This document shows, piece after piece, positions 1 through 31,929 of a stretch of DNA of 64,000 nucleotides. A program made the position numbers and the translations under genes. Origin of the DNA: Patescibacteria group bacterium (GTDB taxonomy: Bacteria; Patescibacteriota; Minisyncoccia; Phycocordibacterales; PALSA-1337); assembly GCA_040388415.1 (NCBI GenBank), contig JAZKBV010000005.1, forward strand, positions 3,364 through 67,363, written 5' to 3'. The notes under the pieces were generated by a model. It was not told where the DNA came from and made no database searches. It saw nothing but the letters and a program-made list of their open reading frames with translations. Every line of letters begins with the position of its first letter. The stretch's first letter is position 1.

Positions 1-1046
1 AAGACGCTGCGGGCAATGTATCAACCGGTGCATCAGCCAGTGTCACTATCACGATTTCAACTGGTGGTGGAGGAGGTGGTGGGGGTGGCGGCGGAGGAGG
101 TGGCCTCGCCTCATACAATCTCTCACTCTCTACGACTGGTACCGGTCATGGCACCACGACTTCAAATCCTTCAGGTATATTTTGCACAGGAACTGGCGCT
201 TGTATGTCCGCATTTACCGTAGGAACTGTCATCAAGTTGACTGCTGTTCCGGACAAATCATCCCATCTCGCTTCATGGACCGGCTGTGATTCTATCAGTA
301 CATCAACATGTACTGTGACCATATCAACAGGGCGATTTGTTACAGTGAAATATGATTCAGGCACGACAAATACTTCCACAGTTCAAAATACCGCTCCTGC
401 CGCTAATACAGCGCCGACTACTGGAACAATTCCAAGCGCTTACCTCAATCTTCCATTCGGTTCACGTTCAACTGCGGTACTCACTCTTCAAAACTATCTG
501 ATCAAAGCAGGTAACCTTTCATCAATCTATGCCACTGGATATTATGGTCAGATTACTGCAAATGCAGTCGCACAGTATCGTGCAAGTCACGGTGGTGGAA
601 CTGTGACTTCAGCAGCAGGAGTTACGAACGCATCAATCACCTCATATCTTTTCTTAGGAACCACAGGCACCCAAGTTAAAACACTCCAAAAGATCTTGAA
701 TGCAAAAGGGTATACTATCGCAACTTCAGGTAGTGGGTCAGTTGGCTATGAATCAACATATTTTGGTGCAACAACTGAGGTTGCTCTGAAAAAATTCCAG
801 TGTGCCACACTTTCAGTTTGTTCAGGTTCACCACTGACAACTGGATATGGTGCAACAGGACCTCGCACCCGTGCAGCTTTGAATGGTACAGCTATACCTA
901 CGACAGTTACTCCAAAAACAACAACGACCACGACTGCGCCAAAGACGACTACGACTTCGACGGTTCCAAAAACAACTACCGCACCAACAAAAACAACAAC
1001 GACCGTAAAGCCAGTGGTTGTTCCGAATATTGATTTTGGTTTCTAA
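1..1046 (+). CDS. Cell-surface protein, 5'-truncated by the window edge, paralog of 1072..6921. Contains a Cys-containing divergent InlB-B-repeat-like domain, a poly-Gly linker, two PG_binding_1-like domains and a Thr/Pro-rich tail ending in NIDFGF.
   Basis: Frame 3 is open from nt 3 and reads DAAGNVSTGASASVTITISTGGGGGGGGGGGGG..., mirroring residues around 6000-6120 of the next gene. PG-binding-like motifs are LQNYLIKAGNL...YYGQITANAV and LQKILNAKGYT...YFGATTEVALKKFQ. The last ~120 nt are near-identical in DNA to the 3' end of 1072..6921. Confidence 0.75.
   Translation, partial: DAAGNVSTGASASVTITISTGGGGGGGGGGGGGGLASYNLSLSTTGTGHGTTTSNPSGIFCTGTGACMSAFTVGTVIKLTAVPDKSSHLASWTGCDSISTSTCTVTISTGRFVTVKYDSGTTNTSTVQNTAPAANTAPTTGTIPSAYLNLPFGSRSTAVLTLQNYLIKAGNLSSIYATGYYGQITANAVAQYRASHGGGTVTSAAGVTNASITSYLFLGTTGTQVKTLQKILNAKGYTIATSGSGSVGYESTYFGATTEVALKKFQCATLSVCSGSPLTTGYGATGPRTRAALNGTAIPTTVTPKTTTTTTAPKTTTTSTVPKTTTAPTKTTTTVKPVVVPNIDFGF
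63..103 (+). repeat. GGN codon run encoding 13 glycines, a low-complexity linker inside the coding region
   Basis: The sequence ggtggtggaggaggtggtgggggtggcggcggaggaggtggc is seen directly. The same feature recurs at 6067..6108. Confidence 0.8.
907..1010 (+). repeat. Thr/Pro-rich (P-K-T-T-T-T) coding repeats
   Basis: Translation gives TPKTTTTTTAPKTTTTSTVPKTTTAPTKTTTTVKP. A near-identical DNA block lies at 6787..6890. Confidence 0.8.
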
Positions 1047-1071
1047 AATCCATAGGGTATAATAGTCGGTA

Positions 1072-4000
1072 ATGAAAAAGCTCTACCTATCTCTATCTGT
1101 TGTTATTTTTGTTGCATGTATTGGGAATAGTGTGGCAAAGGCAAACAGTACATGGGTCTCAGCGAGTGGTCTGACGTCAGCATCAAGCGAATTAGTCTTA
1201 TACCGTAATACCAATGATTTTGGTCAAATAGGATCGCTACAAAAAAGCAGTGATACTGGTAAAACATGGACAACTCTCACTGGCGCAGGTTCAAGGGCTT
1301 GGAATGTGATTCCTCATGCTATAGCGTGGTCAGCGGATGGTCAAAAAGTGTGGGCGTCTGTGTGTGCTACACAATGTCCTGAATACGTATATCACTCAAC
1401 AGATGGAGGTACTACATGGGCAAGTTCAACTGTTCTTGGTCTGAGTCAGTTTTGGTGGAAAATTGGCTCATCTGCTGATGGCACAAACCTCATCTTGCAG
1501 ACTACTGGCTCGACACTTGTGTCTACGAGCTCAGGTGCAACGTGGACTACGGTGCTCAATAGCATCGGTGGTGGAACGGTCGCAATCTCACCTGATGGCG
1601 CAACGATGGTTTCGACTAATGACAAAAACAGCGATGGAAGCATACATATTTCAACTGATTCGGGTGCGACTTGGACAACTGTCTCGAGCATTACGAGTAA
1701 AGGGGACTCAGCAGCGATTGGGAATAATGGCATTATATACATTGGTACTGTAGACGGTTATGTATATCGATCATCCGACTTTGGCTCGACATGGACTGCA
1801 CTGAGGTTTGCCGGAATGAATAATTGGGATGATTTAGTGGTATCTGATGATGGTGTTCATATTCTTGCTCTTGCCAATGTTGCACTTCACTACTCTGATG
1901 ATAGCGGAACCACGTGGTATCAAGGTGCAACTGGCGGCCAGTGGAAGCTCTGGTATGCAGCTGATGGTTCCAAGGCATACTACAGCGCTGATTTATCATA
2001 CGTACCTATTCCAGCAATCACCGCACAAAGCGTATCAAGTATAACGGCGACTGGCGCAACTCTTAACGCAACTATCGCGAATGATTTTGCCTTTCAATAT
2101 TCAACAAGCGCAAAAGGATTTAGTTATGGTGCGACTAACGCGTATGGCACTGATGCATCTACTGCTGGTACGTTTACCTCTGGGGCATATAGTCAAAGTA
2201 TAAGCGCGCTGACCTGTAATACAACATATTTCTATCGTCCGTACGCAACAAATGCCAACGGCACCTCATACGCCACGAGCACATATTTTACAACGTTGCC
2301 CTGTGCTGGATCATTTGTCATAAATAAAATATCAATCCCAACCTCAGGCTCAACTGTTGTGCAGTTGACTGGTAATGCAACTGGATGGACGCCAGGTACT
2401 CCAGGTAGCCCAACATTTACAGTTTCAGGAGTTAGTGGCGCTTCTATTTCGTCACAGACAGTTACTGATGCAACTCATGCATCTGTCACGATAACAACAG
2501 GTACGGCTACTGGCACATTGACCATTAGTGATCCTGCTAACGTAACATCAAAAACTGTAAATGTTGTTCTGGCTACAGACGTCATTGCAGCAAATAATAG
2601 TCACGTTATATATTCTCCTGGCAATACGTATGATAGCGGTTCAGGAGTGCAGATGATGCATACCGGTAGCTCAGCAAAGTTTGTCTTTACGGGTAGCACG
2701 CTCAAACTGGATGCTGATTTGAGCTCGCTTATCGGTGCAGGCAATCCATTTGCAAATTATCCTTTTATTGACTGGAAGATTGATGGTGGGGTGTGGCAAC
2801 GTGCACAACTTCAGCCAAGTTCTGGGACAAGTACACAGGTGATGACGCTTGCCAGCGGTTTGTCGAATAGTAGTCACTCGGCACAAGTGTATTATGAACA
2901 GGGTGGCGTCGAAGATAGTTGGCCGGCAACTTCATTGGTGAAGATTACTGGATGGGAAATCGAATCAGGCAAATCAATTTCAACTCCAACATATGCCGAC
3001 GGTCTCCGACCAAAACGCATGATGATTCTTGGTGACTCTATCACTCGTGGTTACTCAGCTGAGACGGACTCAAGTGGAGTCGATCATACAGCTGCAGGAC
3101 AAACATATGTGCAAGATAGTTGGGGTATGCTTTTCGGTCAAAAGCTCGATGCAGAAGTGGGCATAAAGGCCTACAGCGGACAGGGTTACCGAAAGATAGG
3201 TGCAGCACCGTACGTGACTGGTACATTTGATTATGTAGATTCACGCCACGCTCAACCACTTCCGTCAGATCTCGATTACCTTGTTATCGCTCAAGGAGCA
3301 AATGATTATCAGACTGATATCACTACGTCAGTTAAAGAGTTGTTGACGTTGGCCCGCGCAGAGGTTGGCGCGAATACAAAAATATTTTTGATGCCATCAT
3401 TTTTGACGCTCAGTGACCCGAATACTAATCCTGAGGTTACCGCTCAGATACAGGCAGGATTGGCGGCGTATCAAGCGTCGTATCCATCTGATAGTAAAGT
3501 TTATTTTTTCAATATTGGAGATATATTTGGCGCTGTTGATCCGTATCATTCGACTACGTACATGTTGGAAGACATTCATCCGAACCATGCCGGACATGCG
3601 TTACTCGCAACAGATGTCGCTAATATTGCCGTCGGATACGCGCCGACAGTTATATCGTCGGTAGCAACTTCATCAGGAGCTACGAGCGTCACAATCACGT
3701 GGAATACAGATAGATCTGCTGATAGTTCGGTCAATTATGGCACGACCGCGTCGTACACTTCTTCGTCTACGTATTCCTCAGCAAAAACACTTACGCATTC
3801 AGTGACAATCACTGGCTTGAGTACTTCACAGACATATCATTATCAGATTGTTTCTGTTGATACTGCTTCGTCGAGTGTGTTCACAACTGATGCCACATTT
3901 AGAACCACAGGAACTGCGGTAAAGGCAACATTGGCAACTTCTTCACCTACATCTGTCACATCATCAGGAGTTACATTGAATGCAAGTATTACTGCTGATG

Positions 4001-6921
4001 GTGGTGACGCGTCAACAGATGTTGGCTTTGAATATGGTTTGAATTCTGCATATGGTTCTGTGGCTTCAACGTCCGGTTCGTTTGGTGCTGGGGCATTTTC
4101 AAAAGCCATTACTGGGCTTACACCAGCAACGATATATCACTACAGAGCTTTCGCGACAAATTTTGCGGGTACCGCAACAACGACAGATCAAACATTCACT
4201 ACTGCGTCACAATCTGTTTTTGCTCCAACTCTGACTACGTCAGAGTCAAATTCCATCACCACAACTGGTCTGACTCTGAATGGAAATATAAGTGACACTG
4301 GCGGTGAAGATGCTGTTCAGCACGGTTTCGCCTACGGCATTACCGCTGATCTTTCGGTCGTCATCGCCACCACATCGCTCGGTTCTTTCAGTGGTACAGG
4401 TGATTTTACCCAAACAATCACTAGTCTTACACCATACACCACATATTACTTTAGAGCATATGCAGCGAACACAGTGGGTACATCGACAGGAGATATTCTT
4501 GCAACGACAACGAGACAAGCCTCAGTTGTTGCAGCGCCAGCACTAGTACAGAGCAACTCAGTTTATCAAGGTAGTGGTTCAGGTCCAACGGACCTTGCAT
4601 TTACAAGCGACACGACCGCAGGGAATCTTATTGTTGTAGCTATCGGCGATGCGTTAAGTCATGGGCAAGGAGGTGACCATACTGTTACTGATTCACAAGG
4701 AAATGCGTATACAAAAATTATGCGAGATGGCACCGGTTCACAGTCAGAAGTGTCTTTGTACTATGCAAAAAATATCATTGGTGGTCCAGACACTGTTACG
4801 GTGACACTTTCCAATCCAACATACGACCTCGGATTTCATATTTCTGAATGGTCAGGATTGGACACGACTGACCCTCTTGTTGCTTCATCAACTGGAACAG
4901 GTAGCGGTGCAGTTTGGTCAACAGGAGATTTGACTCTGACTGATCCAGTAAATCTTATTATTGGAGCCGCTGATGATGAAGTGGTTGCAGGCGGACCTGT
5001 TACTGCGGGTACAGGTTTTACCATGCTAACTCAACAACTCGGTAATCTTTCCGCAACCGAATATCAGGTCACAAGCTTGGCAGGTACGTACCCAGTGTCA
5101 ATGAACGGTGAAAGCACATCTGCGTGGGTAATGGGCTCAGTAGCATTTAAAGCTCAAGCATCTGGTGCTGTTGGTCCAACTCTCACTACATTAGCGGCAA
5201 GCTCAGTCACAACATCAAGCATGACACTTAATGCAAATGTGACTGATACGGGCGGTTCAGATGCAACGGAGCATGGGTTTACCTACGGTACTTCGCCAAC
5301 TCTCTCAGTCGTCATTGCAACGACAACACTCGGTGGCTTTACAGGTACAGGTGCTTTCACAGAGAGTATCGGTAGCCTTACACCAAACACCACATATTAC
5401 TTTAGAGCATATGCTGTGAACTCCACAGGTACTTCAACTGGAGCTATTCTCTCAACCGCTACATTACAGACCGTAACTATACCAACACTCACCGTCCAAA
5501 GTGCCTCAACGGTATCATCGACATCAGCAACTCTTAATGGAACTATCACAGCAACTGGTGGATCAAACGCTCTTGCGCGTGGTTTCAATTATGGAATAAC
5601 GAGTGCATATGGGGCCACCTCAACTGTTAGTGGTTCGTTCAGCACCGGAGCATATGCGACGAGTACAACGGGTCTTACCTGCAACACGTTGTATCATGTC
5701 CGTGCATTCGCGCAAAATTCAGCAGGCTTTGCATATAGCTCTGACAGCACCTTTACAACCGGTGCCTGCTCAAGTGGCGACACCACCTCACCAACCATCA
5801 CCGCTTTCACTATCCCTTCAACAGCAAGTGCGTTGGATGTTTCAATCTCAACATTTACTGCAACAGACGACACAGCAGTGACAGGATACCTCATCAATGA
5901 ATCAGCAACGCCTCCTGGAGCAGGTGACTCAGGATGGACAGGTACAGCGCCAACTTCATATACCTTCAGCAGTGCCGGCAGTAAAACTCTCTATGCCTGG
6001 GCAAAAGACGCAGCTGGTAATGTATCTTCAGGTGCAACAGCTCCTGTAACTATTACTATTTCAACTGGTGGTGGTGGTGGCGGAGGAGGAGGAGGAGGGG
6101 GTGGTGGGTCTTCGAGTGGGGGTGGAACTATCTTTTATACGCTCACAACCACGCCGACAACAACTGCTGGTCTTGCTAAGGGACTGACAGTGCTCCATCC
6201 TACAACATATCAATTTACGCGCGTTCTCAGTCTTGGCTCGCTCGGCCTCGATGTGCAAAATCTCCAAGTATTTCTCAATGCCAATGGTTACCCAATCGCA
6301 CTAGCTGGCGGTCTCGGCGCACCTGGTTTTGAGACTACATATTTCGGACCAGCGACTGTCGCTGCGCTCAAAAAATTCCAATGTGCAGTGCTTTTGCTCT
6401 GTTCAGGTAGTCCAGAGACAACTGGATACGGTGCGACTGATGTACGCACAAGAAATGCATTCAAAGGTGTGATAAGCGTCATTACGCCTGTAACTGTTGC
6501 GAATAATATGAGCGCTGTCATCACATCATATCTTTTCCTCGGCGCAACGAGTCAGCAAGTAAAATCACTTCAGAAACTCTTGAATGCAAAAGGGTATACT
6601 GTCGCTTCTTCTGGTGGTGGCTCTGCCGGTAACGAAACAACATATTTTGGTCCAGCGACTGCAACAGCCGTCAAGAGGTTCCAGTGCGCTGTGCTCTCAG
6701 TTTGTTCAGGTAGTCCTTCCACTAATGGTTACGGTGCAACAGGACCGCGCACCCGTACAGCATTGGGCGGTACAACTGTGCCAGTTACTCAACCAAAAGC
6801 GACGACCACGACTGCGCCAAAGACAACAACAACAGTTGTTCCTACTAAAACAACTACTACACCAACAAAGACAACAACCGTAAAGCCTGTAGCAGTGCCA
6901 AATATTGATTTTGGCTTCTAA
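1072..6921 (+). CDS. Giant secreted multidomain surface protein of 1949 aa. Domain order: signal peptide, BNR/Asp-box beta-propeller, SGNH/GDSL hydrolase, multiple FN3-like domains, Gly14 linker, three PG_binding_1-like domains, Thr/Pro-rich tail ending in NIDFGF.
   Basis: Signal peptide is MKKLYLSLSVVIFVACIGNSVAKA. Six S-x-D-x-G-x-T-W Asp-box repeats are present (SSDTGKTWTT, STDGGTTWAS, STSSGATWTT, STDSGATWTT, SSDFGSTWTA, SDDSGTTWYQ). GDSL block I is MMILGDSITRGY, a GANDY block follows, and the catalytic DxxH is DIHPNHAGH. FN3-like signatures such as LTPNTTYYFRAYA recur about 8 times. A G14 run and PG-binding repeats with KKFQCAVL...CSGSP are present. Confidence 0.85.
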   Translation: MKKLYLSLSVVIFVACIGNSVAKANSTWVSASGLTSASSELVLYRNTNDFGQIGSLQKSSDTGKTWTTLTGAGSRAWNVIPHAIAWSADGQKVWASVCATQCPEYVYHSTDGGTTWASSTVLGLSQFWWKIGSSADGTNLILQTTGSTLVSTSSGATWTTVLNSIGGGTVAISPDGATMVSTNDKNSDGSIHISTDSGATWTTVSSITSKGDSAAIGNNGIIYIGTVDGYVYRSSDFGSTWTALRFAGMNNWDDLVVSDDGVHILALANVALHYSDDSGTTWYQGATGGQWKLWYAADGSKAYYSADLSYVPIPAITAQSVSSITATGATLNATIANDFAFQYSTSAKGFSYGATNAYGTDASTAGTFTSGAYSQSISALTCNTTYFYRPYATNANGTSYATSTYFTTLPCAGSFVINKISIPTSGSTVVQLTGNATGWTPGTPGSPTFTVSGVSGASISSQTVTDATHASVTITTGTATGTLTISDPANVTSKTVNVVLATDVIAANNSHVIYSPGNTYDSGSGVQMMHTGSSAKFVFTGSTLKLDADLSSLIGAGNPFANYPFIDWKIDGGVWQRAQLQPSSGTSTQVMTLASGLSNSSHSAQVYYEQGGVEDSWPATSLVKITGWEIESGKSISTPTYADGLRPKRMMILGDSITRGYSAETDSSGVDHTAAGQTYVQDSWGMLFGQKLDAEVGIKAYSGQGYRKIGAAPYVTGTFDYVDSRHAQPLPSDLDYLVIAQGANDYQTDITTSVKELLTLARAEVGANTKIFLMPSFLTLSDPNTNPEVTAQIQAGLAAYQASYPSDSKVYFFNIGDIFGAVDPYHSTTYMLEDIHPNHAGHALLATDVANIAVGYAPTVISSVATSSGATSVTITWNTDRSADSSVNYGTTASYTSSSTYSSAKTLTHSVTITGLSTSQTYHYQIVSVDTASSSVFTTDATFRTTGTAVKATLATSSPTSVTSSGVTLNASITADGGDASTDVGFEYGLNSAYGSVASTSGSFGAGAFSKAITGLTPATIYHYRAFATNFAGTATTTDQTFTTASQSVFAPTLTTSESNSITTTGLTLNGNISDTGGEDAVQHGFAYGITADLSVVIATTSLGSFSGTGDFTQTITSLTPYTTYYFRAYAANTVGTSTGDILATTTRQASVVAAPALVQSNSVYQGSGSGPTDLAFTSDTTAGNLIVVAIGDALSHGQGGDHTVTDSQGNAYTKIMRDGTGSQSEVSLYYAKNIIGGPDTVTVTLSNPTYDLGFHISEWSGLDTTDPLVASSTGTGSGAVWSTGDLTLTDPVNLIIGAADDEVVAGGPVTAGTGFTMLTQQLGNLSATEYQVTSLAGTYPVSMNGESTSAWVMGSVAFKAQASGAVGPTLTTLAASSVTTSSMTLNANVTDTGGSDATEHGFTYGTSPTLSVVIATTTLGGFTGTGAFTESIGSLTPNTTYYFRAYAVNSTGTSTGAILSTATLQTVTIPTLTVQSASTVSSTSATLNGTITATGGSNALARGFNYGITSAYGATSTVSGSFSTGAYATSTTGLTCNTLYHVRAFAQNSAGFAYSSDSTFTTGACSSGDTTSPTITAFTIPSTASALDVSISTFTATDDTAVTGYLINESATPPGAGDSGWTGTAPTSYTFSSAGSKTLYAWAKDAAGNVSSGATAPVTITISTGGGGGGGGGGGGGGSSSGGGTIFYTLTTTPTTTAGLAKGLTVLHPTTYQFTRVLSLGSLGLDVQNLQVFLNANGYPIALAGGLGAPGFETTYFGPATVAALKKFQCAVLLLCSGSPETTGYGATDVRTRNAFKGVISVITPVTVANNMSAVITSYLFLGATSQQVKSLQKLLNAKGYTVASSGGGSAGNETTYFGPATATAVKRFQCAVLSVCSGSPSTNGYGATGPRTRTALGGTTVPVTQPKATTTTAPKTTTTVVPTKTTTTPTKTTTVKPVAVPNIDFGF
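6067..6108 (+). repeat. GGN codon run encoding a Gly14 linker
   Basis: The sequence ggtggtggtggtggcggaggaggaggaggagggggtggtggg is seen directly. Confidence 0.8.
6787..6890 (+). repeat. Thr/Pro-rich coding repeats, paralogous to 907..1010
   Basis: Translation gives KATTTTAPKTTTTVVPTKTTTTPTKTTTVKP. The DNA motif acgaccacgactgcgccaaagac is shared with the upstream gene. Confidence 0.8.
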
Positions 6922-7019: not shown

Positions 7020-7481
7020 ATGCTCGCAAAAATTCCTTCATTCGTTAAAGTTGTGCTTGTCGTCATTCTCGTTGCCATCATTGCAGGTGGATATTCAATG
7101 GGGTATTACTATCACAACAAGTACGCTGATCTTGTAAAAGATCCAAACGCTGCAGCTCAGCAAAAGGCTCTCCAGATCATCAATAATGTTCAGAAGCTCA
7201 TCGTTGTTCCACAGAACGAAACACCAAACATTTCAGTTGTTACAAATAAGGACAGTTTGATCAATCAGCCATTTTTCAAGAATGTTGAGAACGGCGATAT
7301 CTTGCTCGTTTATCCTTCTGCTTTGGAAGCAATCCTCTATCGTGCGACTACGAACAAGATTGTTGCAGTCATTCCTCTCACTACTGAGAGTCAGGCAGCT
7401 CCTCTCGAAAATCAGCAGCAGCCAGTTCTCCAGAAGGCGACTACCACTCCAACGACCAAGTCTACAATGATGAAGAAGTAG
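7020..7481 (+). CDS. Hypothetical membrane-anchored protein with an N-terminal TM helix
   Basis: A 153-aa ORF with the hydrophobic stretch VVLVVILVAIIAGG. No recognisable catalytic motif. Confidence 0.5.
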   Translation: MLAKIPSFVKVVLVVILVAIIAGGYSMGYYYHNKYADLVKDPNAAAQQKALQIINNVQKLIVVPQNETPNISVVTNKDSLINQPFFKNVENGDILLVYPSALEAILYRATTNKIVAVIPLTTESQAAPLENQQQPVLQKATTTPTTKSTMMKK

Positions 7482-7524: not shown

Positions 7525-7562
7525 TTGACAATTCATACTATCCATGATAAAAGGATAGTATG
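7525..7562 (+). promoter_or_regulatory. A TTGACA -35 box followed by a 9-bp perfect inverted repeat (atactatcc / ggatagtat) that overlaps the -10/RBS region and the ATG of 7560..8279
   Basis: The sequence ttgacaattcatactatccatgataaaaggatagtatg is seen directly. The palindrome could be an operator or an RBS-sequestering hairpin. Confidence 0.3.
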
Positions 7563-8279
7563 AATTTCAATATATCTACCCTCAATAGAAGCCTTTCAAT
7601 CGCTGTTGTTTCAGCTGTTGTTGGCTTTTTTGGTATTGCGCATGCTGATTATACGACCGCTGACGTTGAGCCGTATGTATACACTGCGCCTACGCTTTCA
7701 GCTGGATCGCTTATAGCTTCAATTTCATTTGATCAAGTTGAGTCGCTCGTTGCGAGTGATTCTTCAGGTAACAGTAATGATGCTATTCTTTCTGATGATA
7801 CGGTATGGGCTACTGGTGTCTCAGATTCTGCTATTTCTTTTGATGGTGGTGACAATCGTGCTCTCATACCAAATGATGTTATCGGCAGCAGCCCCGTTAC
7901 CGTATGTGCTTGGTATAACGTCAACTCAACTCCTGTTGGGGCAGTCCTCATCAGTAACAATGCCTTTTCTATCTCACTCAATACATCTGGCAATTTTGAT
8001 ATTTCAAATAATGGAGGAGTAGATACCGTCTCTACAACTGGTGAAATAGCTCCAGGAAACTGGAACCATATCTGTGTTGCTCGCGCCGAATCAGGTGATG
8101 TTGCGGTATATATAAATGGATCATTGAATGTGCAAGGCAATGCCGGCGCGCCTCTACTCGGCACAGAAGTTAGTATAGGTAATAGTTCATGGAATGATGA
8201 TCATGGTTTTGATGGTATGGTTGATGATGTAAGAATATACACCGGCGCTCTCTCGGCTGAGCAGATTTTAGCGATGTAA
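7560..8279 (+). CDS. Secreted concanavalin-A-like lectin/LamG domain protein
   Basis: Signal peptide is present. The C-terminal motif DGMVDDVRIYTGALSAEQI is typical of the Laminin_G_3/LamG fold. Confidence 0.55.
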   Translation: MNFNISTLNRSLSIAVVSAVVGFFGIAHADYTTADVEPYVYTAPTLSAGSLIASISFDQVESLVASDSSGNSNDAILSDDTVWATGVSDSAISFDGGDNRALIPNDVIGSSPVTVCAWYNVNSTPVGAVLISNNAFSISLNTSGNFDISNNGGVDTVSTTGEIAPGNWNHICVARAESGDVAVYINGSLNVQGNAGAPLLGTEVSIGNSSWNDDHGFDGMVDDVRIYTGALSAEQILAM

Positions 8280-19214: not shown

Positions 19215-20417
19215 TTATTGATTTAATAATTGAATGGCCTTATTCATGACGATATCGTTCTGTGGCGTCGATGAGGCAGATGATACTGCAAAGTCGGGTT
19301 CAAGTCCATTCTCTGACAAGTTGTGGCCGAGCGGGGTCATCCAGCGAGCCACGGTGACCTTGAGCGAAGTGTCGGCAGTGATCGGTATTAGCTCTTGAAC
19401 CACTCCTTTACCGAAGGTTTTTGAACCGATGAGTTTTGCCGCGCCGTTCTCTGAAAGTGCACCAGCAAGAATCTCAGAAGCTGAAGCTGAGCCGCCATCT
19501 ACGAGAATGTACATCTTGAGGCTCTTATCAAAGACGTTGTAGCCCTTACTCTTGAATATGTTCGGTGAACCCTTGGTGCCAAAGTCTTCAGTGACCACGG
19601 TTTTGCCTGCAGGAAGGAAATATGAGGCCATATCCCACGCTGCGTCGAGATATCCACCTGGATTGCCGCGAAGATCGAGGATGAGCTTATGCTTGCCAGA
19701 AAGGATGAACTCGCGGAGGCCGTTTCTGAAGAGATCTGGTGATTGAGCAGTGAAGCTATAAAGCCGGATGACAAAGACGTCACCACGAGTCTCAGTATCG
19801 AGTGTTGGGATATTGATAGTATCGCGAATGATCTTTCTGACAACCGGCGCTGTGGCACCGACAGGAAGGAAGGTGATATTGACCGCACTTCCCTTTGGTC
19901 CACGGATAATATTGACCGCCTTGTCGACTGGCATACCTTGGGTCGATGTCGCTTCGATCTTCAAGATAAGGTCTCCGCTCTTAACCCCTGCTTTGCTTGC
20001 AGGGCTGTCTTTGATTGGCGATATGACGAGGAGCTGATTATTCTTGATACCGATCTCCATGCCGACGCCGCCGAAGTTGCCAGCGATATCATCTTGGAAC
20101 ATCTTTGATTGGACTGGTGGGAAAAAAACGGTATAAGGATCATTTAATGAACCGGCGAGGCCTTGGATGGCACCCCAAACTTTGTCCTGAGAGGTACTGC
20201 TCGCTGACTTTACGTATTTTTGATCGAGTATAGTCCAGACTTTCCAGAATGGTGCGAACTGTTCATCGGAAACAATCGAGGTATCAGTGAGATGAGCATT
20301 GATGCTATAAAGCGCTTTCTCTTTTCCGGCGAAGTAACCAACTGAGAAGACCGCAATCAAGATACAGGTGCTGACAATGGTGACTGGGATGTACTTATTT
20401 TTAAAATTGAAATCCAT
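19215..20417 (-). CDS. ctpA: Carboxyl-terminal processing protease, S41 family
   Basis: The PDZ region is GDLILKI. The S41 catalytic block is LILDLRGNPGGYLDAAWDMASYFL. Confidence 0.85.
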   Translation of the reverse strand: MDFNFKNKYIPVTIVSTCILIAVFSVGYFAGKEKALYSINAHLTDTSIVSDEQFAPFWKVWTILDQKYVKSASSTSQDKVWGAIQGLAGSLNDPYTVFFPPVQSKMFQDDIAGNFGGVGMEIGIKNNQLLVISPIKDSPASKAGVKSGDLILKIEATSTQGMPVDKAVNIIRGPKGSAVNITFLPVGATAPVVRKIIRDTINIPTLDTETRGDVFVIRLYSFTAQSPDLFRNGLREFILSGKHKLILDLRGNPGGYLDAAWDMASYFLPAGKTVVTEDFGTKGSPNIFKSKGYNVFDKSLKMYILVDGGSASASEILAGALSENGAAKLIGSKTFGKGVVQELIPITADTSLKVTVARWMTPLGHNLSENGLEPDFAVSSASSTPQNDIVMNKAIQLLNQ

Positions 20418-28042: not shown

Positions 28043-30349
28043 CTACATTTTAATCAGATTTAATGCTTGTTGAACATATGTTTTTAACTCAATATCATTA
28101 ATTGGTGCGCTTCTAGAATTAGTATTATCATGATGATATTTTTTTGAATAATTGTTTAATTCTTTTAGTTCTTGTGCATTCGATGTGAATAATGAAAATT
28201 GTGGATCTATGGGTTTCATTTCAATAATTTTGATCATTTCACCCAAATTATTTGCCTTAATTAAACTACTCATAAATTTATAACCTAAATAGCCTTCGAT
28301 TACACTTCTAATTTTTGATGCTATTTGACGTTTTTGATCATCATTTTGAGTGCCATTAGTGAGATAGTTTTCTAAAATGTAAATACTTTTTACAAAATCA
28401 CTAGAAATTTCCTTATCAAAATCACATTCCTGGATGACATTCGTAGAATGTGCCCTAGAAATTGAAAGGGTTTTAACATTTAAATTTAATTTTAAGCGTT
28501 GAACAGCTTTCTTCATGTCGCAAGCAAAAAATGGGTTATGCGTAAGTACGATTAATTGTTTGACCTTGGGAACTAAATCAGACAAATACTCTACTGTTCG
28601 TTGACTACGGCCTTCATCATGACTAGTTAATGGATCATCAAACACGACAATTTTCTTGGACAGGTCTGGGTCAAGCTCTAATCTAGCAAGAAAAAAAGCT
28701 AGAGCTAAGGAATTTTTGTCCCCTTCACTTAGTGCCTGCTCGAAGCAAATATCATGACCGTTGTTTTCAAATTTAACTAGTTCACCATCAAGAAAAAGTT
28801 CATATTCAGCAACTGGATTAATTGAGGCCCCAACATATCTTCCATTTACACTTTGTCCAAGCATAAAGTCAGTTCCAATCTTCTTTAGATAACCATTAAT
28901 TTTAGGTGCATATTGAGCAAGTATTGTAGCAGTATATCCTTCTAATTCTACCTTCTTAGCATCTTTTTCTTCATTTAATTTTTTTGTTGCAATTAAAACA
29001 GCTAATGCAGCGTCGCAAAGTTTAATATGTTCAGTGGTGAAACGACTTTGAATCACTTTTATCTTTTTAATATTTTCAGAAATTAATTTTGGGTCAGATA
29101 TTTTTTTACTTCTAATAGACTCAATTTGAATATTATGCTTTTCTACAACAATATTATACTCACCTACAAATTTATTTAAACCATCAACGATACTTTTCAG
29201 ATTACTTGAACAATCTTGTGTAGTTAATGGTTCACTAATTTTCCTTTTTAGACATGTATTTATCAAATCAAAATCTTTTTGCAAAATAACAAGACTGGAG
29301 ATATCTAATTTTGGTCTAGGCGTAAGCTGTATATACTGGTTCCAAAATCCGTCTAGTTCCAGGTTAATTGCATCACTTCTTTCCCAACCACTTTGAATTT
29401 TTTCAACAGAAAAATTACCTGCAACTGAAGCTACTTCTCTAATTTTTGAAATTAACTCTTCGTATTCTTTATTAAAATATTGTCTATAAGACTCAAGCAC
29501 ATCGCCGGCGTTTTTTAAATCTTGCATACAAAAGGGACAGTTGTTGTCAGTAATATTTTGTAGACCAAATTTTAACCATTCCTCCACTTCACCAGTGTTT
29601 GAAAATTTTGATTTGTGTTCATCAACCAAATCTAAAAATTGCTTCTGAATTGAGGTAATAGTTGTACTACAAATATTTTTAACGTCTTCGAGTGCAGGAA
29701 TATACTTAATTTCCTCAAATCTTAAGTATTTTTGTTTTGAATGAATTAAATTACTTGCAGCAGAAGTCCTAAATTCATTTTCCGCGCTACTTAACTGAGA
29801 ATCAATTGTTAGATCTGGTTTTAAGTTTAAAAAGTCTCTAAAAGAGATCAATCCTCCTGTAATGCGCTCAATATCCTTCTCAAAGCCACGATTTTGTTGC
29901 ATTAGTTCGCTAATGTCCCTTTTGCATCTTTCAATTTCTGATGTTAATACAACCCCTCTCGCACCGACAATAAATCTATGGAGTTGTTGCTTATGGTCTG
30001 GAGTAATATCAAGTCCAGAATAGATGTTCTCATTTACAAAGAAAGTATCGAATATTTCTATGTCAGAATAAGGTGCTGTCCAGCCTGTCGCAGTGTAACT
30101 AAATGTAACACCTTCGCCTTCAAACAATACTTCTTGGCCAGTGTTACTACCAATACTTTTCCTTTGTTGAATTATGCCTGGGTTATTATCACGCAGTGAA
30201 CGCAAAACAGATGTCAAAGTTGTTTTTCCTTTTCCATTTTCTGCGTATAAAAGCACAACTTTCTCCAATAATCCATTCCAGCCATTTTTTACGGAATCAA
30301 AATCATTAAATCTACCGACGCCACATATTTTGAGAATTTTCTTAATCAT
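28043..30349 (-). CDS. RloC/PrrC-like protein: a Rad50-like ABC ATPase with a coiled-coil insertion and CxxC zinc hook, fused to a C-terminal HEPN-type anticodon-nuclease-like domain
   Basis: Walker A is [12 protein letters not shown]. The CxxC zinc hook is [10 protein letters not shown], about 230 aa into a heptad-rich insert. The ABC signature is [19 protein letters not shown], Walker B/D-loop is [14 protein letters not shown] and the H-loop is LIVLTHN. The C-terminal R-x3-E...H motif reads KIRSVIEG...[10 protein letters not shown] is very low, about 30%. The start codon overlaps the stop of the upstream gene by 1 nt. Confidence 0.65.
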
Positions 30350-30981
30350 TATCGTTCGTTTGAGATAAATATTTCCTTTCCAAGATTATTTGAATCGTAG
30401 CTATGTGAGACTGGAACGTGCAAAATACGCAACCCAACACCTTTCATTATCTCATTTACAATTTGATCCCTTTTTATTCTATCCCACCTTGAGTGTGAAC
30501 GATCGTCTAATTCGATGGCCAAATATGGTTTGTATGCTTTGTCGTATAAAACAAAGTCGATCGATTTAGCTTTAATCAGGTTAAAATCGCGATAATTTGT
30601 CCAATGCTCATTTGAATCAATTGGTTTAACTATTCCAGATAGTGGAACCTGTGACTCAATGTGATAAGTATTACCAACTATGTTCTCTAAAATCTTTAAA
30701 AATTCTTTTTCAGCGTTTGTCACTAAACTTTCTTTTAGAATATAACGTGATTCTGTTGCAACTTCAGTATTTTGTTGTGGGCTAATACTGCTAGTTGGGG
30801 TTATGGTTGTTGCCCGACTTAACTTAAGGTTCGGTCGAGTATTATTTCTATTTTTAAACAATTTCCAGCAATATCTAAAAAAAGAAATTAATATAGTAAA
30901 TATAAGACTGATTAGCGCATCGAAAAAGATATCAAGCGGACCGGCGTTCTTGCCTCTATAATATTTGTAATTTCTCGTCAT
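30349..30981 (-). CDS. Membrane-anchored DUF2726-like protein with a restriction-endonuclease-like fold
   Basis: The N-terminal TM helix is LDIFFDALISLIFTILISFF. The C-terminal block is SIDFVLYDKAYKPYLAIELDDRSHSRWDRIKRDQIVNEIMKGVGLRILHV, which follows the D...E-x-D/H pattern of DUF2726/NERD-type nucleases. Low GC. Confidence 0.55.
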   Translation of the reverse strand: MTRNYKYYRGKNAGPLDIFFDALISLIFTILISFFRYCWKLFKNRNNTRPNLKLSRATTITPTSSISPQQNTEVATESRYILKESLVTNAEKEFLKILENIVGNTYHIESQVPLSGIVKPIDSNEHWTNYRDFNLIKAKSIDFVLYDKAYKPYLAIELDDRSHSRWDRIKRDQIVNEIMKGVGLRILHVPVSHSYDSNNLGKEIFISNER

Positions 30982-31008
30982 TTTTTGATAAATTATAGCA
31001 CCGTACCT

Positions 31009-31929
31009 TTATTTTTTCTTAATTCTAGCAGCAATGGCATTTATAAGTATCTCCTTGAGTTCTTTCTTGGTCGAATATTTATAACACTGATAGTGTCTAA
31101 CGTAAAATTCTGGGGGAAGCTCATCTTTACAGACATAGATTGTTTCAATATTTAAGCCAAACGCAAAACCAGCCTCAAAAAATACACTGCTTCTTGTTCC
31201 TGTAAGATCAACAACCACAAAACGACTTTTTCTTATTTCACCTAAAGCCTTATCCATAATTTTTTCAGGGAAAAGACTATCTTTAATACAGACTGGCATA
31301 TATCCTGCCTCAGTAATTGCTTCTTCCATTGCTGTAATGCTTTCATTCATTGATTCATCAAACCACGCAGCAATAAAACCCTGTTCTGATTCAGAATTTT
31401 CCTTTCCTAACTTATTTCCAAGCTCCCATCCATTGGCAGTTAACGTAATTTTGTAGGCGTATAGTCCATCTGTATTGCTCAGAGGTGCCCAGTGAGCTAG
31501 ATTTTTTTGTTCGAGCATTTTAATCAGAGCCTCAAACTCTTTAGGGTTTTTTGCATAAGCTAAAGGGTAATCATTTTTGCAGTTTACTTCGGTTGATTGA
31601 CCAAAATATTCAATTTTAGCTTTTAATCTCTGCAATAACTTATTTGCTTTTTCGGCGATATCATTTGATTTTGGTACTGGATAGCTATTTTTAAGTGTTT
31701 CAATATTTGTTGTTAAAAACTCTGGAATTTGGCGTTGCTCGTTCAACTCACGAACTAAACCAGATAAAAGATATGCATCATTAGATTCAGGTGTATATCT
31801 TAAACATTCATCGCTAATTTTATATTCACCACAACGAGGACAAATTATTCTGTAAAGATCCCGACTGCTTATGGGGTATATTCCCACATCTTCACCACTT
31901 TTATGACACAAAAAACATTTGGTTGGCAT
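31009..31929 (-). CDS. Zinc-ribbon protein with a C-terminal TIR-like/nucleoside 2-deoxyribosyltransferase-like (flavodoxin-fold) domain
   Basis: The N-terminal CxxC...CxxC is CFLCHK...ICPRCGEY. The C-terminal strand/helix pattern FIAAWFDES...MPVCIKD...FVVVDLTGTRSSVFFEAGFAFGLNIETIYV has a conserved Glu at the position of the TIR/NDT catalytic glutamate. Low GC. The start codon lies 1 nt after the uvrB stop. Confidence 0.45.
   Translation of the reverse strand: MPTKCFLCHKSGEDVGIYPISSRDLYRIICPRCGEYKISDECLRYTPESNDAYLLSGLVRELNEQRQIPEFLTTNIETLKNSYPVPKSNDIAEKANKLLQRLKAKIEYFGQSTEVNCKNDYPLAYAKNPKEFEALIKMLEQKNLAHWAPLSNTDGLYAYKITLTANGWELGNKLGKENSESEQGFIAAWFDESMNESITAMEEAITEAGYMPVCIKDSLFPEKIMDKALGEIRKSRFVVVDLTGTRSSVFFEAGFAFGLNIETIYVCKDELPPEFYVRHYQCYKYSTKKELKEILINAIAARIKKK

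Follow-up and report, generated by a model that had tools for sequence, protein, structure and literature searches.

C-terminal signals of the sortase type are defined by a short motif, a transmembrane helix and a basic cluster, and by many substrates per enzyme (PMC3237569). In LPXTG proteins the motif is preceded by a spacer of the wall-spanning type, and the PG_binding_1 domain (PF01471) is counted among the domains that bind the wall non-covalently (PMC5817068). Extracellular enzymes that are expressed at high levels and contain peptidoglycan-binding and immunoglobulin-like (Ig-like) domains have been reported from Paceibacteria (PMC10936435). Here, we analysed a 64-kb stretch of DNA from an uncultured, ultra-small Patescibacteria group bacterium (contig JAZKBV010000005.1, positions 3,364 to 67,363; hereafter the window). 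It begins with two neighbouring open reading frames (ORFs) on the + strand, gene 1 (3..1046) and gene 2 (1072..6921), which share the ending ...TTTVKPV[V/A]VPNIDFGF-stop. This C-terminal peptide, which we call the end-piece or tail, is the subject of the present work. A search of the literature yielded no description of the motif. An earlier reading made from the DNA letters alone (the sequence-only reading) had suggested that it could be a novel C-terminal sorting or attachment signal.

As that reading had already pointed out, the end-piece is not LPxTG, PEP-CTERM or GlyGly-CTERM, and neither Pfam nor NCBIfam placed a known C-terminal sorting domain in gene 1 or gene 2. With the tripartite signals (LPXTG/sortase, PEP-CTERM/exosortase, GlyGly-CTERM/rhombosortase and PGF-CTERM/archaeosortase) it shares a short motif near the C-terminus and a Pro/Thr-rich spacer in front of it. 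It differs from them in that it lacks the transmembrane helix and the basic tail and in that no many-to-one relation to an enzyme is apparent. Only 0-12 residues follow the conserved core P-x-I-x-F (GF in the window), with no hydrophobic stretch, and the termini GF, NF, PAF, PSSF, IVF and NQVY contain no Lys or Arg. Substrates of the tripartite systems are numerous in a genome and homologous only in their C-terminal signal, whereas one or two carriers of the end-piece are found per locus and their full cassette is homologous. Unlike the tripartite signals, moreover, the motif itself is where one of the carriers stops. The proposal of a novel sorting or attachment signal is therefore not supported: the tripartite architecture is missing, the end-piece was found only with one and the same cassette, and no candidate processing enzyme was seen among the neighbouring ORFs that were checked.

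With the Paceibacteria enzymes carrying PG_binding_1 and Ig-like domains, the likeness lies in a secreted, multidomain build, in spacers of the fibronectin type III (FN3) and Ig-like types, in C-terminal PG_binding_1 repeats and in the phylum-level lineage. Those enzymes mostly stop after the PG_binding domain, whereas the window proteins add a Thr-rich spacer and P-x-I-x-F. The new element here is an end-piece that is restricted to a clade, is under selection and sits on a flexible tether behind a known type of wall anchor.

The C-terminal cassette and its end-piece

Only the 3' part of gene 1 is present. Its frame is open from base 3, is cut by the window edge and runs for 347 codons to the stop codon at 1044-1046. 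Gene 2, also referred to as gene B, encodes a multidomain surface enzyme of 1949 amino acids (aa) that is predicted to be secreted. The two had been described as tandem paralogous giant proteins. They are indeed adjacent, but their paralogy does not extend over the whole length: they can be aligned over the C-terminal ~350 aa only, a stretch that takes in the last part of an Ig-like domain and continues through a Gly run and the PG_binding domains to the spacer and the tail. Gene 1 is the ortholog of a ~1140-aa gene A in related metagenome-assembled genomes (MAGs); over the C-terminal ~260-300 aa it is 69% identical to protein P0075 and 66% identical to P0077. The syntenic gene A in locus L051 (1141 aa) has a hydrophobic anchor at its N-terminus, and its N-terminal region differs from gene 2 and has no family match.

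The Gly run of gene 2 (G14 SSS GGG) lies at 6067..6126, and its counterpart in gene 1 at 63..104. Each protein then contains two PG_binding_1 domains, at 468..872 in gene 1 (~aa 156-290; PF01471, E=6e-14) and at 6187..6756 in gene 2 (PF01471, E=9e-15); scores for the two proteins are 55.0 and 52.4 bits (cut-off 23), from two matching stretches in each. The Thr/Pro/Lys-rich spacers comprise 45 aa in gene 1 (873..1007, 51% Thr) and 42 aa in gene 2 (6757..6882, 50% Thr), and they lead into the end-pieces KPVVVPNIDFGF (1008..1043) and KPVAVPNIDFGF (6883..6918), respectively. Pfam and the translations thus confirm the described order of PG_binding_1 repeats, PK(T)n spacer and KPV[V/A]VPNIDFGF for both genes. 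At the DNA level, the last 120 nucleotides (nt), which had been called near-identical, show only 78% identity (98/126 aligned columns). Among the other ORFs of the 64-kb window, none has a NIDFGF-type ending or P.I.F in its last 25 residues.

We modelled the last 264 aa of gene 2 with AlphaFold2 (AF2), using 49 aligned sequences. The model consists of two confident, helical PG_binding domains (predicted local distance difference test, pLDDT, >90 for both), a disordered spacer (pLDDT 45-53) and an unstructured tail (pLDDT 61-65, no secondary structure). That the tail might be the last strand of the PG-binding domain, which would have refuted the sequence-only call, was checked in this model and rejected, as the tail is left without a strand after the disordered spacer. 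Two known types of C-terminal element were likewise rejected. The C-terminal domain of the type IX secretion system (Por_Secre_tail) is a folded β-sandwich of ~80-100 aa; it gave no Pfam or NCBIfam match, and the end-piece measures 12 aa and is unstructured in AF2. The β-signal of outer-membrane proteins, an aromatic terminal strand that is the last one of a β-barrel, was discarded because no barrel is present and the tail comes after two helical PG_binding domains and a disordered spacer of 42 aa.

A search with the C-terminal 264 aa returned 62 PG_binding proteins, mostly from Paceibacterota/Patescibacteria (names including Taylorbacteria). Among these, only P0001 (...KPVVVPTIDFGF) and P0002 (...KPIVVPTIDFPSSF) carry the tail, with P0010 as a distant echo. 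The P0002 locus is L051, which contains a tandem pair as in the window and whose gene A ends in KPVVVPTIDFGF. A profile search with PG_binding domain, spacer and tail, run against 1.84 billion representatives and using no word index, gave 10,806 matches at E<=0.001, and the best 150 of these included five further carriers (P0075, P0077, P0103, P0086 and P0094). Together with L051 gene A and both window genes, the set comprises 11 proteins. Their conserved core is P-x-I-x-F, with P, I and F identical in 11/11, and the preceding (K)P[VI][VA][VI] is nearly invariant. After the conserved VVP, the relatives end in TIDFGF, TIDFPSSF, SINFNF (P0075), VINFGF (P0077), TITFPAF (P0103), TIVF (P0086) or TINFPTTQPVQTNQVY (P0094). 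NIDFGF is therefore not invariant, as the sequence-only reading had it; P-x-I-x-F alone is fixed. The spacers of the 11 carriers measure 31-74 aa and contain 19-51% Thr. The conserved C-terminal peptide as such proved to be real, being kept in 11 proteins, at or near the C-terminus, after a variable spacer.

An exact scan of 185,579 species genomes for VP[N/T/K]IDFGF gave 50 matches against ~52 expected by chance, a number computed assuming equal base frequencies. One of the 50 is a real coding C-terminus, namely that of the ortholog P0001 (L021). The window's own tails were not among the matches in this species-representative collection. Scanning JGI metagenomes for KP[VI][VA]VP[N/T/K]IDF yielded one contig, again with this ortholog. 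In the MAG GCA_035495115.1, which belongs to the species-genome collection, there was only one match to the strict VP[N/T/K]IDFGF, a pattern that divergent tails such as VINFGF would escape. The earlier idea had hinged on NIDFGF recurring at other C-termini. The literal ending occurs nowhere else in the collections searched, but the shorter P-x-I-x-F does recur in related proteins. A query of four concatenated tails produced 39 word-sharing candidates with no true one among them; it also missed P0001 and P0002 and was therefore powerless. Matches in Bacteroidales (L033, L036 and L047, from Paludibacteraceae MAGs), which end in ...ISIISQVPNIDFGF before the stop, belong to one conserved ORF of 55-58 codons and were treated as unrelated. 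This ORF perhaps reads a conserved gene in an alternative frame.

At least three N-terminal architectures occur among the carriers: a propeller plus SGNH esterase, one unannotated ~700-aa domain, or two copies of the latter. In all of them the tail stands behind a PG_binding_1 cassette and a spacer. We found no P.I.F in the last 25 aa of the other ORFs in L051-L056, and ~130 kb of related loci contained no other secreted protein with the end-piece. Very close relatives of the cassette, P0064-P0070, stop directly after the PG_binding domain, which indicates that spacer and tail are an optional add-on. Tail-less relatives were found in other genomic contexts. The end-piece is limited to a small, narrow clade of Paceibacteria.

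The 12 tail codons of gene 1 and gene 2 have 29/36 nt in common; five codons differ synonymously and one by a replacement. Codons for identical residues differ synonymously between the window paralogs at the same rate in the tail (5/11) as in the PG_binding block (25/62). Recent gene conversion of the window tails was therefore rejected, as they have diverged at synonymous sites to the same extent as the remaining cassette. When five DNA sequences are aligned, the third position varies in nearly every tail codon while the residues are kept, and the 11 carriers fall into several clusters that are <50% identical to each other. The synonymous variation, both in this alignment and between the window paralogs, indicates purifying selection on the peptide and not DNA-level homogenisation in the window. 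Hence, the end-piece is a genuine conserved, lineage-specific peptide under purifying selection and not a product of chance.

Possible roles of the end-piece

The reading we favour, and to which we give roughly even chances, is that both genes encode secreted, non-covalently wall-bound enzymes and that the end-piece is a lineage-specific docking peptide extending the wall anchor. The PG_binding_1 domains, with their predicted wall binding, would hold both enzymes to the wall non-covalently. The anchoring cassette would then consist of the Ig-like domain, the Gly run, two PG_binding_1 domains, a spacer of ~40 aa and (K)P-[VI]-[VA]-[VI]-P-x-I-x-F with its 0-12 following residues. The alternating hydrophobic side chains of V-P-x-I-x-F-x-F would suit β-strand addition, and the end-piece could in this way connect the spacer's far end with another component of the envelope, such as a membrane-proximal or a wall-associated protein. 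The most obvious candidate for this component would be the LamG_3 protein encoded next door. The end-piece would supplement the PG_binding_1 anchor and would not be cleaved by a sortase-like enzyme. The export signal expected of PG_binding_1 wall-binding proteins is recognisable by inspection at the N-terminus of gene 2 (MKKLYLSLSVVIFVACIGNSVAKA, 1072..1143) from its KK n-region, hydrophobic core and AKA site; AF2 gives aa 1-29 a pLDDT <50.

The LamG_3 (concanavalin-like) protein of the window comprises 239 aa (7560..8279, + strand; PF13385, E=1.5e-26). It has an N-terminal hydrophobic segment and a weak NCBIfam match to the TafC fimbrial protein. A LamG_3 protein of ~238 aa is encoded downstream of the tail-bearing gene at 5/5 syntenic loci, either directly or, in the window's closest relatives, after the gene for a 153-aa protein; relatives lie at 11423-12142 in L051, 1617-2348 in L052 and 12867-13583 in L054. 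In addition, a multi-LamG_3 protein is encoded two genes downstream of P0086, at a different locus. Going by this gene order, the LamG_3 protein may be a partner of the end-piece, or there may be no more to the association than synteny. The 153-aa protein (7020..7481, + strand), which is encoded directly downstream of gene 2 and has an N-terminal transmembrane segment, a Thr-rich C-terminus and no Pfam family, was also considered as a general dedicated partner. It was ruled out by its absence at the P0103 and P0094 loci: its gene is limited to the window and its closest relatives. The protein is almost identical in L051, L052 and L053 and far more conserved than the adjoining surface genes. 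The gene order at the P0001 and P0002 loci is surface gene(s), 153-aa gene, LamG_3, TrpRS, ScpA/B, FtsW and MurG.

The domain architecture, the conserved core beside a varying spacer, the purifying selection, the varied N-terminal architectures, the optional nature of spacer and tail and the conserved LamG_3 neighbourhood speak for docking. Several points weigh against it. Docking is drawn purely from a sequence pattern and its position. The LamG_3 link may be just the conserved synteny of an orthologous locus near TrpRS, ScpA/B and FtsW, and AF2 shows neither a contact nor a strand for the tail. Furthermore, the motif lies 12 residues from the end in P0094 and P0010 and at the very end in P0086, which calls a requirement for a free C-terminus into question. 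The motif might also occur outside the cassette elsewhere in the proteomes of these MAGs. We thus infer a docking function, and the end-piece should not be taken for a demonstrated new sorting signal.

Alternatively, the end-piece could be a new cleaved sorting or attachment signal. A processing enzyme or transpeptidase would read P-x-I-x-F and attach the protein covalently to the wall or to another polymer, with the residues after the invariant Phe (GF, NF, PAF, PSSF or PTTQP..NQVY) as the leaving group. This would account for an invariant core that is followed by a stretch variable in length and sequence, and for the purifying selection on the motif; its position after a Thr/Pro-rich spacer of the wall-spanning type also resembles the LPXTG layout (PMC5817068). 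We nevertheless regard this explanation as doubtful. Neither the transmembrane helix nor the basic cluster, which are defining for such signals (PMC3237569), follows the motif, and P0086 stops exactly at the Phe and so has no leaving group to offer. The one or two carriers per locus all have the same cassette, and by their predicted domains these proteins would already possess a non-covalent wall anchor. Finally, no sortase, exosortase or rhomboid-like gene was detected among 20 window ORFs analysed with Pfam, which lie mostly in the first 38 kb, or among the Pfam-annotated genes of the related contigs.

The YxF-COOH tails of outer-membrane proteins (OMPs) serve as C-terminal ligands for DegS. 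In a similar manner, a PDZ-domain protease of the HtrA type or of the S41 C-terminal processing peptidases could bind the end-piece, which would then act as a tag for processing, quality control or turnover. All 11 carriers end in an aromatic residue (F or Y), seven of them in aromatic-x-aromatic, and the window does encode a C-terminal processing peptidase of the S41 family (19215..20417, - strand), in which PDZ domains are combined with a CtpB-like N-terminal domain. Its gene is part of a conserved housekeeping block, however, which is also found ~10 kb from P0103, and has no specific linkage to the tail-bearing genes. Conservation resides in P-x-I-x-F, whereas the last three residues vary (GF, NF, PAF, SSF, IVF, QVY), and the need for a 40-aa spacer would be left unexplained. 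We therefore consider such a tag unlikely. The wider class of strand-addition C-terminal ligands (OMP YxF-COOH/DegS for PDZ domains; sortilin Vps10p and Ycf48) resembles the end-piece in being a hydrophobic, aromatic-ended, alternating peptide on a flexible tether, and both an S41-PDZ peptidase and a Ycf48/sortilin-like propeller are encoded in the window. The end-piece differs from these ligands in that its most conserved residues lie upstream of the last three and that the motif is internal by 12 residues in one lineage.

A tail without function, whose likeness between proteins stems from recent common descent or from gene conversion of the tandem paralogs, is already disfavoured and in our view very unlikely. 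Consistent with such an origin, position 7 is N in both window copies and T in both L051 copies, and conversion in a related lineage is suggested by a segment of Ig-like domain and Gly run that is near-identical in P0077 and P0001/L053. This segment, aa ~720-830 of P0077, matches nearly residue for residue although P0077 is of the gene A type and P0001/L053 of the gene B type, which suggests either conversion between tandem paralogs in that lineage or an assembly chimera. But the synonymous divergence of the tail codons matches that of the rest of the cassette, and the motif persists in proteins that are <50% identical overall, while length and composition of the adjacent spacer change freely.

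A head-to-tail assembly, in which the propeller of gene 2 (its own or another copy's) would bind the free C-terminal peptide as sortilin and Ycf48 propellers do with the C-termini of peptides and so link the wall-bound enzymes into a surface array, is scarcely credible: the closest folds of the propeller do include peptide-bound structures (Ycf48 with a D1 peptide, sortilin with the C-terminal peptides of neurotensin and progranulin), but this similarity is generic, with template modelling (TM) scores of 0.55-0.6, and at the P0103 and P0094 loci the tail-bearing gene lacks a propeller gene next to it.

Modules of gene 2 and other features of the window

The predicted signal peptide of gene 2 is followed by an Asp-box (BNR) β-propeller of the Ycf48/GH74/sortilin type (1159..1989). 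The six Asp-boxes (S-x-D-x-G-x-T-W) that had been noticed in the large gene were confirmed by position, at aa 59, 109, 151, 194, 234 and 275. Their combination with an SGNH/GDSL domain and FN3 modules had led to the proposal of an adhesin of the sialidase/esterase type, and the sialidase identity (glycoside hydrolase family 33, GH33) was rejected on the basis of homologs and folds. The BNR match in Pfam is weak, and the match to the NCBIfam model 'F510_1955 glycosylhydrolase' (E=2e-15) is far below the family cut-off. Homologs of aa 1-330 contain Sortilin-Vps10, BNR and PSII_BNR domains, as in Ycf48-like proteins, and are named 'photosystem II stability/assembly factor-like'. In the AF2 model of the propeller (predicted TM score 0.78), the best matches among solved folds are Ycf48, GH74 xyloglucanases and sortilin, and there was no sialidase among the best 50 structure matches listed. 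The propeller resembles GH74/Ycf48-type propellers in its predicted fold, and its assignment rests on this fold and not on catalytic residues.

At aa 526-847 (2647..3612), a sandwich like that at the N-terminus of carbohydrate esterase family 2 (CE2) enzymes is joined to an SGNH/GDSL esterase domain. Lipase_GDSL_2 (PF13472) matches aa 652-844 above threshold (E=3e-15, 57.6 bits against a cut-off of 32.9), and the NCBIfam model AxeC2, a CE2 esterase, gives weaker support (E=1.5e-9, far below the family cut-off). Of the previously described signature GDSIT...DxxH, the domain and the nucleophile motif of block I (GDSIT, aa 654) were found as stated, whereas block V reads EDIHP at aa 833 (L-E-D-I-H-P-N, aa 832-838), that is ExxH, with Glu instead of Asp three residues before the His. 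By these matches, an SGNH (CE2-like) esterase is confirmed in gene 2. It is like the CE2-type SGNH esterases in its match to Lipase_GDSL_2 and differs from them in the ExxH of block V. Sequence and model of the catalytic parts suggest that they process glycans at the cell surface and do not act as a sialidase.

The esterase is followed by fn3 and FN3-like modules from aa 865 to ~1215 (3664..4716), with matches to the Pfam families fn3 and Pur_ac_phosph_N and F-strand signatures at aa 1022 and 1125. A domain with no family match lies between the FN3 modules at ~aa 1216-1364 (4717..5163, boundaries approximate). This region (APALVQSNSVYQGSG...VMGSVAFKA) had no sequence match in Pfam, NCBIfam or the PDB, and it is also kept in L051 gene B and in L053. 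Two further FN3-like modules and the Ig-like domain common to gene 1 occupy 5164..6066. About eight FN3 modules had been proposed. FN3 modules are certainly present, but this number is a rough count: ~5 are clear by the signature Y-x-[YF]-R-x-[YF]-A, in addition to one Pfam fn3 match and some Ig-like modules. When all of gene 2 was compared with PDB sequences, only noise from the Gly run and fn3 came back. A 229-aa NCBI protein on a 14-kb contig (P0207) matches the N-terminal part of gene 2 at 100% identity; the same organism is therefore also present in NCBI as a more fragmented assembly.

The proteins of the gene 1 family (L051 1627-5052, P0075, P0077, P0086, P0094 and P0103) share an N-terminal domain of ~600-700 aa that has no Pfam match and contains conserved motifs such as IWD[IL]EG..W/F...Y[IV]DST. 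It is present twice in P0103, and may be an uncharacterised glycoside-hydrolase-like domain. Further downstream in the window, a low-GC island on the - strand (28043-31929; 31-35% GC against ~45% elsewhere) encodes an AAA_13 protein of 768 aa that matches PDC-S06, a candidate defence system in PADLOC (E=2e-69). Also encoded there are a DUF2726 protein and one of 306 aa that matches a TIR-like effector (E=8e-9). The island is probably an acquired anti-phage defence island in a genome of the Candidate Phyla Radiation (CPR).

The end-piece and the surface of Paceibacteria

How the surface machinery of ultra-small CPR bacteria is built and held in place, including the enzymes thought to mediate host attachment, is largely unknown. 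Our analysis corrects the readings of gene 2 as a sialidase and of NIDFGF as an invariant ending, and it leaves the end-piece, which sits on the wall-anchoring cassette of the largest surface enzymes of these bacteria, as a cheap and concrete handle with which a processing step or a further component of the envelope might be found. Should it be merely a local docking motif, the outcome would be a modest refinement of annotation. There is a slim chance that the end-piece on its Thr-rich tether is what is recognised in a so far undescribed mechanism, specific to Paceibacteria, that fixes surface enzymes to the envelope without a membrane anchor, either through covalent processing at the invariant Phe or through strand-docking into a dedicated receptor (e.g. 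LamG_3). If this were true, either version, covalent or docking, would represent a new class of C-terminal attachment signal in minimal-genome bacteria.

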